Origin: a virus | Strand: one strand, 5' to 3' | UHGV virus genome: UHGV-0249966 | Length of the DNA: 15,833 nucleotides | Program-made: the position numbers and the translations under genes | The notes under the pieces: model-generated | Told to the model about the DNA's origin: nothing | Databases searched by the model: none | Seen by the model: only the letters and a program-made list of their open reading frames with translations | Shown here: one piece after another, positions 95-9,813 of the stretch | Layout: each line of letters begins with the position of its first letter | How positions within the stretch are numbered: position 1 is the stretch's first letter

Positions 95-2542
95 TTAACC
101 GTCATGCATCATGCTGGCACGGGCGCGCGCACGTTTATCCCGCTCGTATTTTTCGAGCGCATCCTGTAACTGGCGGTCAAGCTGTGTCCCCGGCGCAGTA
201 CCGCCCGTCAGGTTGATGTGATATTCGTTTTTACTCTGGTCCACATAAGAGCGGCCAGCCGGTGCCGTGACCGGCTGATAAGCCTGATAGCCTGCATAAG
301 AGCTGGTCGCCGGAATATAACCACCGGTGCCATACGTGGCGGCATGAGTTCTGGCGGCGGTCTGGTCAAGTGTGTCTGACTCTTTGTTGATGACCCCGAG
401 CTTTTCCAGTACCCAGTCAATGCCGCTGCGTAATTTGTTGAACGCATTAAGCGGCAGCATCAGCGCGTCAGCCAGTGCCTGCCCGAACATGACGCCCGTG
501 TCACGGCAACGGTTCAGGGTGTCCTGGGTGGCTTTAACCGGGGCAATCAGGTTTTTAAACCACTGCCACGCGGCCTGTAACTTTTCACCCAGCCAGTCAA
601 ACACCGGTTTCAGTGGCGTGAACAGCTCCCCCACCGGCGCAAATGCCGCTTTCAGCCCTTCCACCACACCGCCAAAAAATGCGCTGACAGGCTCCCAGTA
701 TTTACGGATAAGTAACGCCCCGGCGACAATGGCGGCCACCACGGCCACAACCGGCCAGCTAATAGCCCCGATGGCGGTCATAACAGCACTGCCAACCGTC
801 GTGAAGACTGCCCCCATTGCGCCTGCTGCCGCGATGATGGCATTGATGCCGGTGATAACCGGCCAGGTTACAAGACCAATTGCACCGATGATGCCAGTCA
901 GCGCCAGCGCGCCACCGGCAATGATGCCGATGGTTGACGCCAGTGATTTGTTTTTCTGGATCCAGCCATCGAGTTTTAACACATACTTTGTGGCCGTCTG
1001 CGTGAGCTTACGCAGCGCGCCTTCCTGCTGGTCAAACAGGTCAGTCCCCACCGCCTCATAAGCGGACTGAAACTCTTTAAAGTCACCGCCTAGGTTGTCC
1101 TGCATGATATTTACCAGCTCGGCGGTCTTCCCGTCTGAGGCTTTAAACGCAGCGGTCAGTTTGTCCAGCTTTCCGGTTGAGGCGGCAGTCATCAGCACGG
1201 CGGCGGCTGAGCTGGCCTCCTCCCCGAAAATGGTTTTCATGTATTCAGCCTGCTGGGCAGTACCGAGCCGGTTTTTCTCAAAACTGGCCTGCATTTCTTT
1301 CAGAATGGTAAATACTGGTCGGGTATTCCCTTTACTGTCTGAGGTTTTCACGCCAAGCTCTTTCAGTGCATCCCATGCTTTTCCCGTCGGTGCCTGCAGG
1401 CGGCTTAACACGGCACGGCTTCCCGTCCCCGCCATTGAACCGGTAATTTTTGCATCATGCAGTGCCCCGACCATTGCGGCGGTTTCTTCAATGCTGACAC
1501 CGGCATTTTTTGCCACAGGTGCGGCATAGGTCAGCGCATCGCTCATGCCATCAAAATCGGCGGCGGTTTTGTTCATCGTCATGGAGAGAACATCCCCGAT
1601 ATGAGCGACCTTATCGTTTGAAAGCTGAAAGGCGGATTTCATCCCCATCAGCAGGGCGGCGTTTTCTTCCATCGTGCGGCGGTTCGCCAGCGCCATATTC
1701 AGCGTGACCGGCGTTGCCGCCTGAATGGCATCAACATCCCCACCGGCTTTCGCAATGATAATCTGCGCACCGGCTGCATCATCTGCCGAGGCGGCGGTGT
1801 TGTCGCCGAGCTGGCGCGCCTGCTTGCGTAGTGCAGCCATTTCGGCGGAGTCTTTTGCCACACCGAGCACGGCCTGCAATTCTGAGTTTTTCTGCGCAAA
1901 CTCATAACCTGGCATCAGCAGCTTAACACCGGCCATCGTTCCCGCCGCCGCAATCCCCACACCGGCAGCGCCCACTGAGGCCATATTTCCGGCCAGTTCC
2001 TTTCCGGCCTGATAACGCTGTTTTACTGCGTTAAGTTTTGCCTGTTGCGCACTGACACGCGCCAGCGCGTCGCGCTGACGGTTAAGCTGTGCGGTGGTTT
2101 CACTGATACGTTTTTTCAGTCCCTGCTCATCATGTGCAAGATTGCGGGTATTAATTCCCACAGCGGCCAGCTCCCGCTGCTGGCGTTTAACGGAATCCGT
2201 CAGGCGGTTATATTTCGCCTGTAAGTCCTCCGCCGCACGCTTTGCGGATTCCAGCACTTTCGCCTGAGCACGGGTCGGACGTTCGGTATTTTTAAACTGT
2301 GTGGCAAGGGCTTCAGCTTCCTGCCGTGCCTTTTCAAGTGCATGACCAGTCACGGCGAGCTGTGCACTGGTCTTGCGGAATCCCTCAATACGGGATGCGT
2401 GACCGTTCAGCTCGCGCAGTGATTTTTGTGTTTCCCGGATATCCCCCGACAGCGACTTACTCGCTGTGCGGATGGATTTAAACGGGCGGGATGCCTGGTC
2501 AACAGCCCTGAGCAATACCTGTAATTTTACATTGTTACTCAT
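95..2542 (-). CDS. T: Tail tape measure protein gpT
   Basis: 815-aa ORF, same length as P2 gpT; long Ala/Gln-rich coiled-coil N-terminal half, hydrophobic Gly/Ala-rich central segment, position after E/E'. Start ATG overlaps the E' stop. Confidence 0.93.
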   Translation of the reverse strand: MSNNVKLQVLLRAVDQASRPFKSIRTASKSLSGDIRETQKSLRELNGHASRIEGFRKTSAQLAVTGHALEKARQEAEALATQFKNTERPTRAQAKVLESAKRAAEDLQAKYNRLTDSVKRQQRELAAVGINTRNLAHDEQGLKKRISETTAQLNRQRDALARVSAQQAKLNAVKQRYQAGKELAGNMASVGAAGVGIAAAGTMAGVKLLMPGYEFAQKNSELQAVLGVAKDSAEMAALRKQARQLGDNTAASADDAAGAQIIIAKAGGDVDAIQAATPVTLNMALANRRTMEENAALLMGMKSAFQLSNDKVAHIGDVLSMTMNKTAADFDGMSDALTYAAPVAKNAGVSIEETAAMVGALHDAKITGSMAGTGSRAVLSRLQAPTGKAWDALKELGVKTSDSKGNTRPVFTILKEMQASFEKNRLGTAQQAEYMKTIFGEEASSAAAVLMTAASTGKLDKLTAAFKASDGKTAELVNIMQDNLGGDFKEFQSAYEAVGTDLFDQQEGALRKLTQTATKYVLKLDGWIQKNKSLASTIGIIAGGALALTGIIGAIGLVTWPVITGINAIIAAAGAMGAVFTTVGSAVMTAIGAISWPVVAVVAAIVAGALLIRKYWEPVSAFFGGVVEGLKAAFAPVGELFTPLKPVFDWLGEKLQAAWQWFKNLIAPVKATQDTLNRCRDTGVMFGQALADALMLPLNAFNKLRSGIDWVLEKLGVINKESDTLDQTAARTHAATYGTGGYIPATSSYAGYQAYQPVTAPAGRSYVDQSKNEYHINLTGGTAPGTQLDRQLQDALEKYERDKRARARASMMHDG

Positions 2543-2714
2543 TCGTGTTTCCGCTTCGCCGGAGCGCCTTTTCGCGCCATGTGATGAGTTCGGTCAGGCT
2601 CATGGGATACAGTTCTGATGGCGGCCAGTGAAATATCACTGCCACATCCGCCATCAGGTCATCGACCGACAGATTTTTCGGAAACGTCACTGCACCGAGT
2701 TCGGCGACAAAAAA
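2535..2714 (-). CDS. E+E': E' extension of the E+E' frameshift product (-1 programmed frameshift from E)
   Basis: Hand translation of the -1 frame from the slippery site gives an open frame VAELGAVTFPKNLSVDDLMADVAVIFHWPPSELYPMSLTELITWREKALRRSGNTNE ending at TAA 2537-2535, overlapping the T start. Predicted fusion is about 142 aa, the length I recall for P2 gpE+E'. Confidence 0.8.
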   Translation of the reverse strand, partial: FFVAELGAVTFPKNLSVDDLMADVAVIFHWPPSELYPMSLTELITWREKALRRSGNTNE

Positions 2715-2962
2715 CCGACCACCTTACCGGCCAGCGCCACAAGGTCAGGCAGTTCCAGTGCGGCGACTTCCTGCTCGGTCAGCATCGGTGCAGTCATGCG
2801 CGGCAGCACCTTAATCAGTGCATCGACTTCGGAGTTCGCGACCGCAGCCAGACTGACACCGCGCAGCGTCCCGGCGTTAGGTTTCATCAGCGTGACCTGT
2901 TCGATAACCTGCTCACCACGTTTGACCGGATTGTCCAGGGTAATGACGTTTTCTTTGTTCAT
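2687..2962 (-). CDS. E: Tail assembly chaperone gpE
   Basis: 91-aa ORF (MNKENVITLDNPVKRGEQVIEQ...) between FII and T, same size and position as P2 gpE; contains the T6G slippery site near its 3' end. Confidence 0.9.
   Translation of the reverse strand: MNKENVITLDNPVKRGEQVIEQVTLMKPNAGTLRGVSLAAVANSEVDALIKVLPRMTAPMLTEQEVAALELPDLVALAGKVVGFLSPNSVQ
2708..2714 (-). promoter_or_regulatory. Programmed -1 ribosomal frameshift slippery heptamer T-TTT-TTG
   Basis: Minus strand reads GGT TTT TTG in the E frame (plus strand 2708-2715 = caaaaaac). This matches the known P2 E/E' and lambda G/GT-type tail chaperone frameshift site. Confidence 0.8.
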
Positions 2963-3018: not shown

Positions 3019-3537
3019 TTACAGGCCGATATTGCGGCGGTGTTGCTCCAGCCGGTCGACGCCGTTCACCTTCTCAATCATGTTGATGGTGTCGATTTCG
3101 ACCAGCTCCTTACCGTCCATCGTCAGCCGGAAATAGGTGCAGACCACGGAGATTTTCGACTCGGTGTCTTCTCCCTGTTTACCCTCGCCGGTGTCGATTT
3201 CTTTCTGACGTCCACGCATGACCACCTCGACGGCCACCGTTTCGCCGGTATCGTCGCGCTGGTAAGAGCCTGCAAAACGAATCGGCACAGCATCCACACC
3301 GGTTGCGGCGTAAAGCTCCCAGATAACCGAATCCGGGAAGCCCCCGAGCGACCACTCCATTGACAGCGCATCGTCATCAAGGCCGAGGTCTACCGGTGCG
3401 CTGCCGTTCATCCCCGCACCGCGATAGTTTTCGAGCTTACGGGTCAGTTTTGGCAGCGTGACGGACTTTGCAACGCCCTGATAGCTGTAGCCGTTCAGAA
3501 AGACGTTCATTAACTTGAGTTTGCGCGGCATTGCCAT
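3019..3537 (-). CDS. FII: Major tail tube protein gpFII
   Basis: 172-aa ORF directly after the sheath gene; size and order as in P2. Confidence 0.92.
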   Translation of the reverse strand: MAMPRKLKLMNVFLNGYSYQGVAKSVTLPKLTRKLENYRGAGMNGSAPVDLGLDDDALSMEWSLGGFPDSVIWELYAATGVDAVPIRFAGSYQRDDTGETVAVEVVMRGRQKEIDTGEGKQGEDTESKISVVCTYFRLTMDGKELVEIDTINMIEKVNGVDRLEQHRRNIGL

Positions 3538-3549
3538 CGGTCAGGCTCC

Positions 3550-4740
3550 TTAATTGCTGTTAACCGAAGTGACCAGATTTGCCAGGTATTTATCGGTAAT
3601 ACGCTGGCGCAGGGTCAGGTTTTCGAGAGGAGGCACCGGGGTATAGTCGTAGTCGATATACAGTTTTCCGGCCTTGAGGGTTTCCGCATCGTTGGATTCT
3701 TCGCTGAACCAGCAGGTCGCATCCACGATATAGCCGTTTGTTTTCAGCTCACGGAATTTGGCATTGATGCCGTCAACGATGTCGCGAATCAGCGTTGCGG
3801 TGATGGGCTTGTCCACCGCCCACATGTGCGCCTCAGCCATCGTGTCGGCCAGCACCTGCGCGGTGCGGGTGTAGTTTTCAAAGAGGAACAGCGGGTCATC
3901 AGAGCAGGTACGGTTACCCCAGAAGCGGAAACCGTCACGGCGAATCAGCGTTGTGACGCCTGACTCGTTAAGCAGGTCAGCATCGGTGCCGGACTCCTGC
4001 AAATCCCAGAATACAGAGGCGCTGATGCCGGTAACACCGTTCACCCCAACGTTGGACAGCGTTTTATGCCAGCCCTGCTCCTGGTCGATTTTAGCGCGCA
4101 GACCCAGCGCACGGGCGGTGGCATACGCGGTGGCGGTGGTACTGGTGACCGTATCCCATGCGAGGAAATCCGGCCAGATGACCATCAGCTCACGCTGGCT
4201 GAAATTCTGACGGTAGGCTTTCACCTCGGAAATGGTTTTACAGCCCCATGCGCTGATATACCCGAAAGCGCGCAGCTTCTGACAGACGGATGCCAGTGCA
4301 ACAGCCACCTCTTTGGTATCCAGTCCCGGCACACCGAGAATACGCGGTTTAACACCGGTTACCGACTCCGCCGCCAGCAGGGCTTTTAGTCCGGTGTACT
4401 GACCGTTTTCGTCGGTGGTGCCGATGATATTGGAAACGGTCTGCGCGAGTTTCGTTTCCTCGTCGTCGCCGGTGCCGTCTTCCACACGCACGACAACGGT
4501 GACCGGTTTTGACTGGTCAGCGATGGCCTGCAACGATGCCGCCAGCGTGCCTTTTTTACCGGCCTTTGCAATTGCGCTCTGCACATTGGTAATCAGCACC
4601 GGTTTATTGAGGGGGAAGGTTTCCGCATCCGCATCGCTGGCCGTGCAGACCATGCCGACAATGGCCGTGGATACGGTGGAAATGACACGGGTGCCGTCGT
4701 TAATCTCCAGCACCTGCACGCCGTGATGATAGTCTCTCAT
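3550..4740 (-). CDS. FI: Tail sheath protein gpFI
   Basis: 396-aa ORF (MRDYHHGVQVLEINDGTRVISTVSTAIVGMVCTASDADAETFPLNKPVLITNVQSAI...), same length as P2 gpFI and recognisably the contractile sheath N-terminus. Confidence 0.95.
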   Translation of the reverse strand: MRDYHHGVQVLEINDGTRVISTVSTAIVGMVCTASDADAETFPLNKPVLITNVQSAIAKAGKKGTLAASLQAIADQSKPVTVVVRVEDGTGDDEETKLAQTVSNIIGTTDENGQYTGLKALLAAESVTGVKPRILGVPGLDTKEVAVALASVCQKLRAFGYISAWGCKTISEVKAYRQNFSQRELMVIWPDFLAWDTVTSTTATAYATARALGLRAKIDQEQGWHKTLSNVGVNGVTGISASVFWDLQESGTDADLLNESGVTTLIRRDGFRFWGNRTCSDDPLFLFENYTRTAQVLADTMAEAHMWAVDKPITATLIRDIVDGINAKFRELKTNGYIVDATCWFSEESNDAETLKAGKLYIDYDYTPVPPLENLTLRQRITDKYLANLVTSVNSN

Positions 4741-4835
4741 CCGTTTAACTCCGTGGTTAATGGGTGCAACTATTTTCTGTTGTGCAGAGCATGAGACGCT
4801 ATTTGACCTGGCTGGTCAGGGGATGAAACAACAGA

Positions 4836-4859
4836 CAAAGAAAAGGCGGGTAATCCGCC
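4836..4859 (-). terminator. Candidate intrinsic terminator after the 278-aa accessory gene
   Basis: On the minus strand: GGCGG-ATTAC-CCGCC (5-bp all-GC stem, 4845-4859) followed immediately by TTTTCTTTG (4844-4836). It lies between the stop of ORF 4984-5820 and the FI start. Confidence 0.45.
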
Positions 4860-4983
4860 AGCCTGCCATGATTTGCACTCACTCATTTTCCAACTGACAA
4901 TTTACATAGCCCAAACGCTATCAAATCTGACAGTCTGCTTTGAGCGAAATGCGGACATGCGGGAGCATGGTTTATGTATGAAA

Positions 4984-5820
4984 CTAATGATGATAAATAC
5001 CATCGTCTAAAGGGGGACCTTCAGCCGTAACCCCCGTGATACTACTTGGCGGTTCAAAGATGGCCCGACCAAATATTGCATCAAACTCTGCTTTTGTGAC
5101 TGATAAGTATTGCAAGATGAGCTCTAGCAGCTCTCTGTACGTATCACAATGCCATTCAATGTGAGGACATATTCGGGAGAGAACTCTGTTCTTAAAATCA
5201 TCCAGATTATTTGGGACTTCCAGCAAGTTACCAGTGTTTAATGCTTTCGACATAAACTTGTAATTGAGCATAGAGAGAACCACTACTGATACACCTTTCT
5301 CTTGCCTTAACTGATCGAACTTCTCTTGTGCTTGAAGGCTTAGCTTGGCGTATTCGCGATCTCGTTTAGAGTTGATTGGTTCGACGTACTGAAGCGGTTC
5401 GTCTGCAGCATCACCGATACGTGGACAAAAGTATCTATTCCACCAAGCCTCAAAATACCTTTTTTGGAACTCAAGGTATGTCATCCCAATAATATTGGTG
5501 TTTTGAGTGTACTGTTTAGCACCCTGCTGAAGCCCGTGCTTTGAAATAATAAATCCAATATTAGCCCCGGTTTCATGCATTACCGTGGTGAACGAATGGA
5601 CCACCGTCTGTGGTATAGAACTACCCCAGTTTTTGCATTCCACAATGTATCTGATTTTGTCCACGCTCCTAACATCTGTAGCAAGAACATCCACATTCAC
5701 CGAGCCACGCGGGGTTTCTAAATCGACCTCGACTTCTGCAAACAAGCCAACATTACGGAATATACGTTGGACCCCTGTCTGGAGGTCTTGCCAGTTTTCT
5801 GGTAGTGGGTCATCGATCAC
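4984..5820 (-). CDS. Accessory protein with N-terminal PD-(D/E)xK (Mrr/restriction-endonuclease-like) nuclease core and an unassigned C-terminal region; candidate defence nuclease
   Basis: 278-aa ORF. Motif ...VNVDVLATDV...IRYIVECKNW... (D44, E61-x-K63) fits the D...(D/E)xK pattern of the restriction endonuclease fold. Start is GTG at 5820 (in-frame TAG at 5839-5841 prevents extension), with AGGA 9 nt upstream. GC looks intermediate, lower than the phage genes. Not part of the canonical P2 late operon. Confidence 0.6.
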   Translation of the reverse strand: MIDDPLPENWQDLQTGVQRIFRNVGLFAEVEVDLETPRGSVNVDVLATDVRSVDKIRYIVECKNWGSSIPQTVVHSFTTVMHETGANIGFIISKHGLQQGAKQYTQNTNIIGMTYLEFQKRYFEAWWNRYFCPRIGDAADEPLQYVEPINSKRDREYAKLSLQAQEKFDQLRQEKGVSVVVLSMLNYKFMSKALNTGNLLEVPNNLDDFKNRVLSRICPHIEWHCDTYRELLELILQYLSVTKAEFDAIFGRAIFEPPSSITGVTAEGPPLDDGIYHH

Positions 5821-5940
5821 TTCTGCTTTTCCTATGCACTATCCGCATGCTTTTAAGACTACTTGAAGACACAAACGTCGTCATCCACTAAAAGGTTCAA
5901 ATTTGAGATAAAAGTTCGTTTCTGGTACGAAGCGGATCGT

Positions 5941-6104
5941 TTGAAGAACCGTGTGATCTGCTAAGAGCGAGGAGTGGACGTTCTCAAGGGATTGCTTACA
6001 TCGAGGATGTATGAATCAACGGGGTGCAGGTCACAATATATGCTATCACTTGGTTGTTGAAACGAATGCCAAAGCCTGTGACGAGCGAGGAGTAGACTTT
6101 GGCA
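5941..6104. repeat. Two copies of a 15-nt motif GAGCGAGGAGT(G/A)GAC, each within an imperfect hairpin, in the inter-ORF spacer
   Basis: Copy 1 at 5965-5979 (gagcgaggagtggac) lies in the loop of hairpin 5941-5987 (5-bp stem, one bulge, 3 more bp). Copy 2 at 6083-6097 (gagcgaggagtagac) lies in hairpin 6067-6104 (perfect 8-bp stem tgccaaag/ctttggca, last motif base in the stem). Both are preceded by TGTGA; direct orientation, 118 bp apart. Confidence 0.6.
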
Positions 6105-6114
6105 CAAAAAAAAT

Positions 6115-7068
6115 TTAAGTGTCCGATGACTTTGTTTCAGCCGCTTTATCCTCAACCAATACCCAATCTCCGGAGCTAACCTTTGTCATAAGACAAAATG
6201 GAAAGTTGTTAAAAAAATGTTCAATATCACTTGAGGGTATTTTCTCAATTTTATTTAAACAACCATCAGCTATTTGTAGGGAAATCATTTCTCTTGTAAT
6301 TTTCATAAATTGATCAACATCAGATAACAACCATGTTTCATGATGAGCACCAAACAATTTGTGCGGTATATCATCAAGAATAAGATTGTCTAAATCATGT
6401 GATTTATCTTTGTTTAGCTCAAGAAGTACAAAATCAAAAAAATCAAAAAGATATGAATAGAGAAGATGAGTATAAAAGGTAAAATAGTAATCAGCAAAAT
6501 TAATATTGTTATTGAATCTATTTGAATACATCATATGAGGTTGAATCAGATCGTTTAGATCAGAGTCATATGCTTGGAAACAAATCTTTGTTTTAATATT
6601 ATCATCGTTGACATAATAAGGATTTACTGTTATCCCTCCATGAACTATCTTATTTCTTATTTTATTAAAGTCCTTATACCATTTTAAATTCAAATCTGGA
6701 AATTCCTGTGCATATTGCTGGAAATGATTTTCAAGGTAATCATATTTGTTGCCATTTTTTTTAGTTGGAAAAATTAATTTATCAGCTATCTGATATGCAA
6801 TATCCCATATCGTGCTGATTTTATAATAGCAATACTCAATAGCACTAATGCTGACAATTGATGTTGCATCATGTTTTCTGATGAACTCAGCATCTTTTTG
6901 AATTTTATTAATGTAAGTAATCATATAAAACAGTTTCTTGAAATGAGTTTTTAAATTTTTTAAAAGAAACTGAAGTTTTATGTCTTCCAGTGTATCTTCT
7001 TCATACTTATTTAAGTACATAATAATTTTATAAAGTGGACTGCCAACTCTTTTTGCATGTACATCCAT
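6115..7068 (-). CDS. AT-rich accessory protein with R-x4-H (HEPN-like) motif; candidate abortive-infection / RNase-type defence protein occupying the P2 Z/fun position
   Basis: 317-aa ORF with strongly AT-rich codon usage, unlike the flanking phage genes. ATG at 7068 preceded by GGAG (GGAGTAAATA-ATG). Motif KIRNKIVHGG = R138-N-K-I-V-H143, encoded at 6640-6657, matches the HEPN R-x4-6-H signature (R-N-x3-H as in many Abi-type HEPN proteins). Assignment rests on the motif alone. Confidence 0.55.
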   Translation of the reverse strand: MDVHAKRVGSPLYKIIMYLNKYEEDTLEDIKLQFLLKNLKTHFKKLFYMITYINKIQKDAEFIRKHDATSIVSISAIEYCYYKISTIWDIAYQIADKLIFPTKKNGNKYDYLENHFQQYAQEFPDLNLKWYKDFNKIRNKIVHGGITVNPYYVNDDNIKTKICFQAYDSDLNDLIQPHMMYSNRFNNNINFADYYFTFYTHLLYSYLFDFFDFVLLELNKDKSHDLDNLILDDIPHKLFGAHHETWLLSDVDQFMKITREMISLQIADGCLNKIEKIPSSDIEHFFNNFPFCLMTKVSSGDWVLVEDKAAETKSSDT

Positions 7069-7108
7069 TATTTACTCCAATAAATTAATGCGAACATTTT
7101 AATTGAAA

Positions 7109-7137
7109 ATTTAATGCCAAAAACTTTAGTTAGTCAA
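7109..7137 (-). promoter_or_regulatory. Candidate sigma70-type promoter for the accessory cassette
   Basis: Minus strand TTGACT (7137-7132), 17-nt spacer, TTAAAT (7114-7109), about 40 nt upstream of the ATG at 7068, in an AT-rich 168-bp intergenic region after G. Confidence 0.35.
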
Positions 7138-7236
7138 TAATTTATTCAAACGTCCGCTACTGGCACAGAACGGACTGTCAGATTAGGCTTTACTCTGTGC
7201 CATAGATATGTAAGCTCACACCAGAGCTCATACAAC

Positions 7237-7764
7237 TTATTGCGGCATTTCCGGCCATTCAGGATTTGCAGGATCCACACGACTGACCAGAACACTATAG
7301 CGTTCCCATGCCTCCAGTCGACTACGCTCCTCATCTGTTGCCATATTCAGCCTGACCGCGCGCTCCAGCGGCAAAATCACGGATTCAGCTTCGGAAAGCA
7401 AAGCTGCCTTATGTAATTCCGCCAGTTGCTGCTGTTCGTCTGCCGTATAAATCCGCTTAATCACGGCACCATCCTTAAACATCCATTTACCAGAGTCATC
7501 AGCACGCCGGTTGGCAGTAATATCAGGAACCTCAACGACGCTAAAACCTTCAGGATTAAGCGTTGAAGCATCTCTGGTGATGGCGACAATAATATTATTT
7601 TCATCGTAAACAATCTTTATTGTGTCTTCCTGAAAATTACTTACTTCTTCATACCAGTTTTTTCCGTCTTCGGACCATAACCAGATAACATCAAAATTCT
7701 TTGTTAGCTGATATTGCTCTTTTGTTTTTGGATTACCTGACTTAATGTTCTTTAAATGCTGCAT
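7237..7764 (-). CDS. G: Tail fiber assembly chaperone gpG
   Basis: 175-aa ORF directly after the tail fiber gene, same length and position as P2 gpG. Confidence 0.88.
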
Positions 7765-7767
7765 AAT

Positions 7768-9813
7768 TTACACCTGCGCAACGTTATACCATGTGCCATT
7801 GATGTATTTTTGTATTGGTCTGAATACTGCCGGATCATCACCATCGACTTCACCGACAATACCAAGCCCGGTAATTACGTGCCCTGCTTTCTCATACATC
7901 ACGCCTTTCTGCATGGTCTGCACAACACGTGTACCAAGTCTGATATCTCTCACATAGCGGGAATCAAAGTTACCGTAATCCGAGGGATTAACACGCCCCG
8001 TAATATTTATGGTCTTATTACTTTGAATGCTTCCGGAAACAAAGCGCATAACATGGACGTTATTAGCATAAACATCCAGATTACCATCGCCATTTTGTTT
8101 AAATCCGGTGTCGTTATCACCAAGAACAATAGAGTTCCCACCCAACGCGTTATTCGTGCCAAGTGCCAGCCCGCCATCAATCCTGGCACCATTACCAACA
8201 GACACAACTCCTGTTCTTAAGTTGATGCCGAATGGCCTTAATGGCCCAATATCTCCATTTTCACCCTCATTTTCTCGTGTAGGAATGATATACAGGTTTT
8301 CTTCAGAACGGCGAAAAATAGCCCCAAAAGATGAATTAAATATCCTCAGTGCATTGACTGTAGATATTTTTACTTCACTGCTGAAAAGGGCTTTAACAAG
8401 AACATACAGAGCATCCCATTTAAGATTCATCAGGTCTTTTGTTGTGGTGCTCTGGCGACTTCTCCATTTGAAATATTCATTGCCGTTGTCACCTGTTTCA
8501 AACCACATATATGAATCAGTATCGCTGTCGGCATCATTTTTAAATCCAATCTTTGCCCAGTCAGTATTTCGAATCCAGGCAAGGATTGAGTCGTTTTCAA
8601 AAGTAAGCCCACCGGACAAGGTATCGCCATTCTTTTGCACCGCGTTCCTGGCCCTGTTTACCGTTTCCTGCAAACCGAGGTATTCGATAACGGCAGTAAC
8701 GGTCGCTTTAGCCAGAATATCCCGTCCGACTTTTGTCAGGGTTGCCAGGCTGGCAACATCATTCCCCGTAAAATACGGAAACCTGTCTGCCGCAGTAGCA
8801 AGCCCCGCCAGCGCCGTCAAAGTGGCATCTTTCGGTTGCTTACCCGCAAGCGCATTAGTCATGGTGGTAGCAAAATTCGGGTCATTGCCCAGCGCCGCCG
8901 CCAGCTCGTTCAGCGTATTCAGTGCGTCAGGCGACGAGTCTACAAGGGCGGCAATCGCGGCCATAACGAAAGCCGTGTTTGCGATCTGAGTATTATTCGT
9001 TCCCTGTCGCGCAGTTGGCGTCGTTGGCGTTCCGGTCAGTGCAGGGCTGTTTAATGGCGCTTTCTTGTTCGTTTCATCCATTACCGTCTTAACGGCTTTT
9101 GGTGTTGCGGCGAGCGTCTCAGACATGCTGTTGGTCGCACTACTTAGCTGGACAAGACCTTTTCGCGCTGTGGTAGCGTCCTGTGCGGTATATTTCCCGT
9201 TAGCAAGGTCATATGCGGCCTTAACCGCTTTCGGCGTTGCGGCCAGTGTTTCAGACGTGCTGTTGGTCGCATTGCTTAACTGAGTAAAACCTTTTGCGGT
9301 CAGCGAGGCGTCCGGGTGACGTCGTGACTGTTCATGCTCTGCAATTTTGTCATCAACGTAATCCTGCGTCGCCATCACCGTTGTGGTGTCAATGGTCAGC
9401 TCCACTGAGGCCACACTGCTGACGATGATGACCATGCGGCAGGTCTGCGAACGCCCTGAGCCTTCGGCAAGGGTAGGTTTATAACTTTCGGCCATGTTCG
9501 CCACGGCAATTAACGTTCCCGCATCATCGTACAGGCCAAGCTCTCGCATCCAGAAACCGCCCACCTCCGGCGGAATAACCAGCTCTGCGATAATATAATT
9601 ACTGTTTCGTTTGTCCTGGCTGATTTTGTTCAGCGCATGTCGCCAGACTTCGTGGATAAGCCCGGTCTGTCCGGCATCCGGGACAGGCAATTTACCACCG
9701 CCATCCCCGACGGCCATCGTGGTAATGTTGACCTTCCGCCCTCCCGGCGCGGTTGCCGCTGCCAGCTTTGCTGCACCGGCAGTGGTGATAACGGTTTTGA
9801 ATTTTGTGCTCAT
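7768..9813 (-). CDS. H: Tail fiber protein gpH
   Basis: 681-aa ORF after baseplate gene I; conserved N-terminus MSTKFKTVITTAGAAKLAAAT...; internal duplicated motif ...SETLAATPKAVK... typical of phage tail fibers; Gly/Asn-rich C-terminal receptor-binding region. Slightly longer than the ~669 aa I recall for P2 gpH. Confidence 0.92.
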   Translation of the reverse strand: MSTKFKTVITTAGAAKLAAATAPGGRKVNITTMAVGDGGGKLPVPDAGQTGLIHEVWRHALNKISQDKRNSNYIIAELVIPPEVGGFWMRELGLYDDAGTLIAVANMAESYKPTLAEGSGRSQTCRMVIIVSSVASVELTIDTTTVMATQDYVDDKIAEHEQSRRHPDASLTAKGFTQLSNATNSTSETLAATPKAVKAAYDLANGKYTAQDATTARKGLVQLSSATNSMSETLAATPKAVKTVMDETNKKAPLNSPALTGTPTTPTARQGTNNTQIANTAFVMAAIAALVDSSPDALNTLNELAAALGNDPNFATTMTNALAGKQPKDATLTALAGLATAADRFPYFTGNDVASLATLTKVGRDILAKATVTAVIEYLGLQETVNRARNAVQKNGDTLSGGLTFENDSILAWIRNTDWAKIGFKNDADSDTDSYMWFETGDNGNEYFKWRSRQSTTTKDLMNLKWDALYVLVKALFSSEVKISTVNALRIFNSSFGAIFRRSEENLYIIPTRENEGENGDIGPLRPFGINLRTGVVSVGNGARIDGGLALGTNNALGGNSIVLGDNDTGFKQNGDGNLDVYANNVHVMRFVSGSIQSNKTINITGRVNPSDYGNFDSRYVRDIRLGTRVVQTMQKGVMYEKAGHVITGLGIVGEVDGDDPAVFRPIQKYINGTWYNVAQV
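9089..9317. repeat. Imperfect tandem direct repeat (period 132 bp, about 95 nt conserved per copy) inside H, encoding a duplicated 44-aa tail-fiber repeat
   Basis: Copy A from 9089 (cttaacggcttttggtgttgcggcgagcgtctcagacatgctgttggtcgc...) and copy B from 9221 (cttaaccgctttcggcgttgcggccagtgtttcagacgtgctgttggtcgc...). Protein level: QLSNATNSTSETLAATPKAVKAAYD / QLSSATNSMSETLAATPKAVKTVMD. Confidence 0.8.

Follow-up and report, generated by a model that had tools for sequence, protein, structure and literature searches.

What is a prophage carrying in a restriction-type nuclease gene with no methyltransferase beside it, and how would such an enzyme spare the DNA of its host? The question is raised by the virus genome UHGV-0249966, here a stretch of 15,833 nucleotides (nt) that we refer to as the window. 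Its minus strand holds, at 4984-5820, an open reading frame (ORF) for a 278-residue protein that a sequence-only reading had described as a Mrr-like PD-(D/E)xK nuclease core fused to an unrecognized C-terminal region, and as a sensor-effector style defense protein in a prophage hotspot. In the reading that we favor, at a probability of roughly 40%, the gene encodes a self-contained, single-protein defense endonuclease that is gated by its C-terminal domain. Its sequence and setting make it a credible candidate for anti-phage defense. The features of the gene and its product are the following.

4984-5820, minus strand: nuclease coding sequence, 278 residues, GTG start at 5820 and stop codon at 4984-4986; a stand-alone Mrr-family nuclease with a helical C-terminal domain
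5830-5833, minus strand: Shine-Dalgarno-like AGGA, 9 nt upstream of the GTG, read directly off the sequence
5479-5796, minus strand: PD-(D/E)xK (Mrr_cat) nuclease domain, residues 9-114, from a profile match and the predicted structure
5632-5691, minus strand: catalytic motif of D44 (5689-5691), E61 (5638-5640), C62, and K63 (5632-5634)
5065-5478, minus strand: family-specific helical domain, residues 115-252, with helices 115-146, 151-158, 162-190, 206-217, and 228-250; high-confidence model
4987-5064, minus strand: acidic tail, residues 253-278, IFEPPSSITGVTAEGPPLDDGIYHH; low model confidence

The Pfam family Mrr_cat (PF04471) matches residues 9-111 with an expect value (E) of 4.3e-11 and a score of 43.4 bits against a gathering cutoff of 21, and it is matched by all 67 diverse relatives as well. 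The profile search that the sequence-only reading had proposed as a check thus places the N-terminal region among nucleases. The two peptides in which that reading saw a D...ExK arrangement, around residues 40 to 65, lie at residues 41-50 (VNVDVLATDV) and 56-65 (IRYIVECKNW) and do contain D44, E61, and K63. Across 67 cluster representatives with 28-49% identity to the window protein, no substitution occurs at R38, D44, C62, K63, W65, or G89, and conservation of E61 exceeds 90%. In an AlphaFold2 model based on an 87-sequence alignment (predicted local distance difference test score [pLDDT], 90.6; predicted template modeling score [pTM], 0.88), the nuclease core comprises helix 10-23, strands 27-36, 39-48, and 57-63, helix 71-84, strand 88-93, helix 99-105, and strand 110-114. 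The model has the alpha-beta-beta-beta-alpha-beta core fold, in the full order alpha-beta-beta-beta-alpha-beta-alpha-beta, and its second and third strands carry the motif D...(D/E)-x-K: D44 belongs to strand 39-48, and E61-C62-K63 belong to strand 57-63.

Structural matches of the nuclease domain include the nuclease domains of AspBHI and MspJI, and NucS and the Holliday-junction resolvases share the fold. Matches to BFVD structures were confined to this domain, and PHROGs gave a weak match of the nuclease part to a family of unknown function. A PDB sequence search with the single protein returned a chance match alone (V-ATPase subunit D; E = 0.82). Judged by profile, predicted fold, and conserved residues, the window protein carries an intact Mrr-type nuclease domain.

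The nuclease motif is expressed only if translation begins at the GTG at 5820, which the ORF listing gives as the earliest possible start past the upstream stop codon. As the earlier reading had noted, the next in-frame methionine (M81) lies beyond the catalytic motif. The comparative evidence settles the choice in favor of the GTG. Among 19 homologs down to 60% identity, the N-terminal residues M-I-D-(D/N)-P-x-P-x-x-W-x-x-L-Q vary little or not at all, and P7, W10, L13, and Q14 are still >90% conserved in 66 cluster representatives (28-49% identity); the pattern MIDDP..W.DLQ can be followed down to 30% identity. Escherichia coli, Morganella, and Pseudomonas have GTG as the homologous first codon, for which Proteus and Kangiella have ATG. 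A "cataggaaa" motif is shared with the Proteus ortholog, where it lies upstream of the ATG start. The ratio of nonsynonymous to synonymous substitution rates (dN/dS) in codons 1-40 is 0.02-0.06 (against four orthologs, with dS of 0.2-1.2), so these codons are translated. On these comparisons, the GTG at 5820 is the correct start.

The remainder of the protein matches no family in Pfam, NCBIfam, or PADLOC over residues 112-278, as the sequence-only reading had anticipated, and the whole protein is without a match in NCBIfam. The structure search that was suggested for this region succeeded in part: residues 115-252 are modeled with confidence as a helical domain, but the domain has no specific match in the PDB, only generic ones. 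Its proximal part (residues 115-160) is highly conserved and carries the motifs EFQ..F...W and YTEP.NSR, and the distal part (residues 161-252) evolves fast and ends in a conserved EFD..FG motif. F118, W126, and F246 are >90% conserved in the 67 representatives. Pairwise identity for residues 1-114, 115-160, and 161-252 is 0.79, 0.76, and 0.51, respectively, in a close set of homologs and 0.45, 0.32, and 0.21 in a broad set; the corresponding dN/dS values are ~0.03, 0.06-0.12, and 0.24-0.52.

A profile of the C-terminal domain alone retrieved Mrr_cat proteins or truncated gene calls, including 198-residue calls that start at M81. Since it retrieved solely such proteins in a word-indexed search of limited sensitivity, we discarded the idea that the domain is swapped among effectors. 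The isoelectric point (pI) is 5.3 for the whole protein and 6.2 for the C-terminal domain (family median, 5.8), and no transmembrane segment was found (maximum 19-residue Kyte-Doolittle hydropathy, 1.12). The acidic tail is confined to closer relatives (at least about 60% identity), and the wider family mostly stops near FGERA. The tail sequence ...GVTAEGPPLDDGIYHH holds a G-P-P motif that is conserved in relatives above ~60% identity and missing from most of the wider family; the tail with this motif could be a short docking motif.

An indexed search found 360 homologs. The closest 120 are 60-97% identical, nearly all of 270-278 residues, and carry no label other than "restriction endonuclease" or hypothetical protein; their hosts are Enterobacter, Serratia, Proteus, Pantoea, Klebsiella, Pseudomonas, Vibrio, Kangiella, Psychrobacter, and Paraburkholderia. 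An exhaustive search gave 1,069 representatives of 50%-identity clusters at an E of ≤1e-3 and 557 at an E of ≤1e-10. Typical matches in that search have 240-260 residues and align from residue 1 to ~255; thus, members of the family normally have both domains, and the final 25 residues form a tail specific to a clade. Copies of 90-97% identity occur in Enterobacter, Serratia, Proteus, and Pantoea, and the whole-gene dN/dS of 0.14-0.19 indicates purifying selection. By the number of homologs and this ratio, the ORF at 4984-5820 is a real gene.

RefSeq holds the match in E. coli LD93-1 (99.9% nt identity over window positions 4750-7240) as WP_032259605.1, "restriction endonuclease." The same annotation underlies the match in 9/9 carrier genomes, and the gene is annotated as intact (837 nt) in all three carriers inspected (H1, H4, and H9). 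No paper in the literature searched mentions the RefSeq accessions, and the family is, as far as could be tested, annotated but unnamed. It is nevertheless widespread in prophages, plasmids, and defense islands.

Late genes of a P2-like prophage, read on the minus strand, make up the window, and the nuclease gene lies among them as cargo.

95-2542, minus strand: tape measure gene
2535-2962, minus strand: tail chaperone pair, annotated in a sister prophage as "phage tail assembly protein" and "GpE family phage tail protein"
3019-3537, minus strand: tail tube gene
3550-4740, minus strand: tail sheath gene FI
4741-7236: variable cargo region (Z/fun hotspot) between G and FI, with two cargo genes
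4835-4859, minus strand: hairpin GGCGGATTACCCGCC with a T-run behind it, resembling a terminator by consensus match only and lying past the end of the nuclease gene, ahead of the sheath gene
4933-6033, minus strand: 1.1-kb cassette of the nuclease gene with 213 nt upstream and 51 nt downstream
5821-6114: 294-nt spacer between the two cargo genes, of which the proximal 213 nt move with the nuclease gene to a lambdoid prophage
6115-7068, minus strand: second cargo gene, 317 residues, no Pfam family, weak HEPN_Apea hint (E = 0.18)
7237-7764, minus strand: tail fiber assembly gene G (Caudo_TAP; E = 3e-34)
7768-9813, minus strand: tail fiber gene H, followed by baseplate, tail-completion, and lysis genes

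The nuclease gene is the cargo gene nearer the sheath gene, and the RefSeq gene order of the 99.9% identical prophage of E. coli LD93-1 agrees with this map. The hotspot proposed by the sequence-only reading proved to be the P2 Z/fun slot: the gene lies between G and FI, where sister prophages hold unrelated genes. The Z/fun locus of P2 is described as a second defense-enriched hotspot of P2-like phages (PMC9519451; bioRxiv 10.1101/2024.10.15.618418). The slot flanks were matched in 1,008 of 5,426 complete E. coli genomes, 8 of which hold this cargo in the slot; other cargo between the same flanks, in the genomes listed, includes Shedu, SIR2, a helix-turn-helix gene with an acetyltransferase gene, FlxA-like genes, and other genes. 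The guanine-plus-cytosine (GC) content of the nuclease gene is 43%, and that of the tail genes is ~57%. Elsewhere in the late region, the two tail chaperone ORFs overlap, as expected for the programmed frameshift of P2 E/E+E', which is ordinary for P2-like phages.

The nuclease gene is mobile and stands independently of its neighbors. E. coli 210205630 has a copy of the cassette (96% nt identity) in a lambdoid prophage. There it directly follows replication gene P, has SEC-C and HEPN genes next to it, and lacks the 317-residue neighbor; with the eight hotspot copies, this makes 9 carriers among the 5,426 genomes. The 213 nt upstream of the gene accompany it into the lambdoid prophage, so its promoter or regulatory region probably lies in them. 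The Proteus ortholog (92% identical) occupies the slot between antiterminator Q and the lysis genes in several different lambdoid prophages. In several of these, two co-oriented genes lie directly upstream (L007, ~6844-7869; L016, 3832-4866), one for 215-219 residues (PADLOC candidate PDC-S67; E = 9e-33) and one for 111 residues. A Pseudomonas ortholog adjoins Abi_2 in an integrase/AlpA/DUF927 element, and plasmid copies occur in Buttiauxella, Yersinia ruckeri, and Bradyrhizobium. More distant members are found in defense islands, where they adjoin DUF4238 and Abi_C, a SIR2-Piwi short Argonaute system, or Lamassu with DUF4238.

We also surveyed the immediate surroundings of the gene at 37 species loci, taking the closest two ORFs from either flank (139 proteins). 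The commonest neighbor families were DUF2971/PDC-S31 (n = 9), AbiV (n = 4), mad3 (n = 4), AriA/AbiLi-type ATPases (n = 4), PDC-S06 (n = 3), LmuB (n = 3), and transposases; GajB occurred once. No neighbor is shared across the family at these loci. DNA methyltransferase families were absent from the 25 most frequent neighbor families, and no adjacent DNA methyltransferase was found in the window or at the loci examined. A conserved small partner or antitoxin was likewise considered and rejected, as the immediate neighbors at 10 loci belong to unrelated families.

According to the reading that we favor, the nuclease would be accessory ("moron") cargo of the prophage, and the lysogen would gain from it protection against invading DNA or other phages. 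The predicted catalytic center is the Mrr-type PD-(D/E)xK site, acting through D44, E61, and K63 with a divalent metal. Residues 115-160, with the basic YTEP.NSR..RK loop, probably complete DNA binding or the active-site environment, and residues 161-252 probably set when or on what the enzyme acts. By a logic like that of Shedu, the enzyme may stay inactive until it meets a phage protein or a phage-specific form of DNA (ends or replication intermediates). Because the gene moves without a methyltransferase and is >90% identical between genera, we infer that host DNA is spared by control of the enzyme itself. Gating by the C-terminal domain is favored because the noncatalytic part is helical, nonbasic, and fast evolving, unlike modified-base readers, and because most neighbors are abortive-infection (Abi)-type genes. 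Nuclease activity, the defense role, and gating are all properties that we infer for the protein.

A wider version of this proposal, possible though on balance doubtful, is that the protein represents a large unnamed family of single-protein anti-phage systems, with at least 557 clusters at 50% identity in Proteobacteria and beyond, whose undescribed helical domain, encountered with this nuclease alone, senses infection and unlocks a Mrr-type nuclease. If true, the protein would combine sensor and effector in a minimal immune system unlike Shedu, Type IV enzymes, or the Mrr effectors linked to STAND proteins. If the cassette protects, a compact, partner-free nuclease system of 278 residues would join the defense catalog and would offer a small system, easy to work with, for studying how the host escapes a nuclease that has no methyltransferase. 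Nuclease cargo in the Z/fun hotspot is already expected by specialists; this instance is a single-protein PD-(D/E)xK nuclease with a helical domain specific to its family.

Several points weigh against the gated-nuclease proposal. The case for defense is one of association only (hotspot, mobile elements, and defense neighbors in many unrelated genomes). Of the reading put forward from the sequence, the nuclease core, the start, the C-terminus without a family, and the hotspot have stood. The neighbor count has no matched background, and five of the loci (Psychrobacter and Methylophaga) share one neighbor; the count is supportive and not a statistic. No known sensor resembles the helical domain in the structure search, and the domain was seen with no other effector in one word-indexed profile search of limited sensitivity; in being tied to a single nuclease, it is unlike the swappable sensor domains of many defense proteins. 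No sigma-70 consensus promoter was detected on a minus-strand scan of the 213 nt upstream of the gene. No homolog was found by tblastn in 50,697 deposited phage genomes, so the gene is rare cargo among sequenced phages. Finally, we found no paper that tests this protein, in a search that did not cover a 2023 paper on nuclease-containing systems of E. coli.

The main rival, which we consider unlikely, is that the protein is a Type IV modification-dependent enzyme, which would cut only DNA bearing a modification that the host lacks (foreign methylation or the hypermodified bases of phages). Because only modified DNA is cut, neither a methyltransferase nor a trigger would be needed. The likeness to Mrr and to the Type IV enzymes MspJI and AspBHI lies in the Mrr_cat catalytic domain and in the solitary state, as no DNA methyltransferase adjoins the nuclease gene in the window or at the loci examined, and none recurs among the 139 neighbors. 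The domain order of these enzymes is reversed, however, as the nuclease of the window protein is N-terminal. Pfam detected no modified-base reader (Mrr_N winged helix, SRA-like, or other) in the protein or its 67 relatives, although a new type of reader is conceivable. The noncatalytic part is instead an all-helical bundle with generic structural matches and a near-neutral pI, and its distal portion evolves fast, contrary to the conservation expected of a pocket that reads bases.

A role outside defense is distinctly less probable than Type IV restriction. The protein would then be a nuclease for recombination or repair, or a structure-specific one (NucS/Hjc-like), would serve the prophage life cycle, or would be a selfish endonuclease of the homing type that propagates its own cassette. 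The fold in common with NucS and the Holliday-junction resolvases is in keeping with this, as are one distant member that adjoins an ImuA/ImuB/DnaE2 mutagenesis cassette, a Kangiella copy in an ordinary chromosomal neighborhood, and the movement of the 1.1-kb cassette between unrelated prophage sites. However, the gene occurs sporadically and in association with mobile elements, as the nine E. coli carriers illustrate. The gene sits in variable cargo slots rather than among conserved phage functions, its neighbors are mostly defense genes, and its insertion contexts are too diverse for site-specific homing.

Does the enzyme act with the second cargo gene? The two could form a two-gene system in which one protein senses and the other acts, or a toxin-antitoxin-like pair, and they are indeed adjacent and co-oriented in 8/8 complete E. 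coli genomes with the hotspot cargo. The 317-residue protein contains R138-N139-x3-H143-G-G (codons at 6640-6657), a motif of the HEPN RNase type that is invariant among its homologs, and it is probably an independent candidate for Abi-type defense. Its gene lies 294 nt from the nuclease gene and has a GC content of ~28% (about 27-30%), against 43%. Homologs without a Mrr_cat gene nearby occur in Vibrio (beside a type I-F CRISPR-Cas system and an integrase), Dickeya, and Pantoea, and the nuclease cassette lacks the 317-residue gene in the lambdoid prophage and in all other contexts examined.

The neighbor is also often broken. A run of eight A residues at 6755-6762 (minus strand, codon ~103) has seven in 5/8 of the E. 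coli cargo genomes, which splits the gene into fragments of 125 and 192 residues, while all five retain an annotated nuclease gene, intact with 837 nt in H4, the one genome inspected. The fragments are found on more contigs (263 and 243) than intact forms; the A7/A8 variation is either decay of the HEPN-like gene or on/off switching at a homopolymer. With a lone cassette, a split neighbor, and separately occurring homologs, we reject the two-gene system as very improbable. The P2 Z/fun slot here holds stacked, independently acquired cargo, a HEPN-like and a Mrr-type gene of very different base composition.

The poorest candidate of all is a Type II enzyme left as an orphan, either with its cognate methyltransferase encoded at another genomic site or, if that was lost, as an inactive remnant: the database name "restriction endonuclease," the presence of Mrr_cat in some Type II enzymes as well, and a Dam-like methyltransferase gene ~3.7 kb away in some Proteus prophages speak for it, but that gene is missing from Proteus L008 and L010 with an identical nuclease gene, so that no linked cognate methyltransferase is consistently present, no DNA methyltransferase recurs as a neighbor at the 37 loci, purifying selection and intact catalytic residues are unlike a remnant, and an unprotected sequence-specific enzyme would not cross genera at 90-97% identity.

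Comparison with described systems places the window protein apart from each of them. Shedu (SduA, DUF4263) is likewise a single polypeptide that joins a PD-(D/E)xK nuclease to a variable noncatalytic domain, and a Shedu gene occupies the identical P2 slot in E. coli NCTC9088 (H16). The C-terminal DUF4263 nuclease domain was not detected in the window protein by Pfam or PADLOC. The PD systems of the P2 hotspot share the position between tail fiber assembly and sheath genes, but the protein is different, and none of the PADLOC models of the PD-T4, PD-T7, and PD-lambda systems matches it. PADLOC v2.0.0 gave no model match beyond a local one of the nuclease core to the candidate PDC-S02, also a single-gene system with a Mrr-type nuclease. 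This match covers 65 residues (profile positions 236-301 of 346; E = 3.1e-5) and falls short of full length, so the architecture differs; similarly weak PDC-S02 matches to the nuclease core occur in 45/67 family members.

Epona, the only named single-gene Mrr_cat defense that we found, is a Mrr_cat cassette of a Vibrio cholerae integron reported to be anti-phage. By its description, it is set apart by a holin-like domain with two transmembrane helices, of which the window protein has none. Mrr-type nucleases also serve as killing modules in STAND/NLR-type defense proteins, such as Avs8A, whose Mrr nuclease is activated by phage capsid protein (PMC12236752), and the NACHT-associated restriction endonuclease domains of Pfam, of which NA-iREase1 weakly matches 19/67 family members. 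The window protein differs from these in having no nucleoside triphosphatase or repeat sensor, in its size of 278 residues, and in catalytic residues that are intact and not degenerate. AF1548 of Archaeoglobus fulgidus (PDB entry 1y88), an uncharacterized archaeal structural-genomics protein of 184-199 residues, matches the nuclease domain and little more, leaving the 138-residue helical domain without a counterpart. Being uncharacterized, AF1548 offers no mechanism for the window protein.

Two groups of relatives have neighborhoods of their own. In Psychrobacter and Methylophaga, and in that clade only, a gene for a 240-residue DUF2971 protein (PDC-S31) lies 50 nt upstream of the nuclease gene in the same orientation (L029 and L031 to L034, at 4229-4948). 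The two genes may be paired in this clade, or the clade may merely share an island. The Vibrio ortholog is surrounded by small, co-oriented, closely spaced genes (L024 and, at 1020-1100 and 3250-3630, L026 of V. litoralis). No integron attC site was matched by Rfam in the Vibrio relatives. Imperfect inverted repeats with cores of the GTTAAC/GCGTTAAC type occur in L026 and are suggestive in their resemblance to integron attC sites. If they are true attC sites, the family would also move as integron cassettes, a link to the Mrr_cat cassette Epona.

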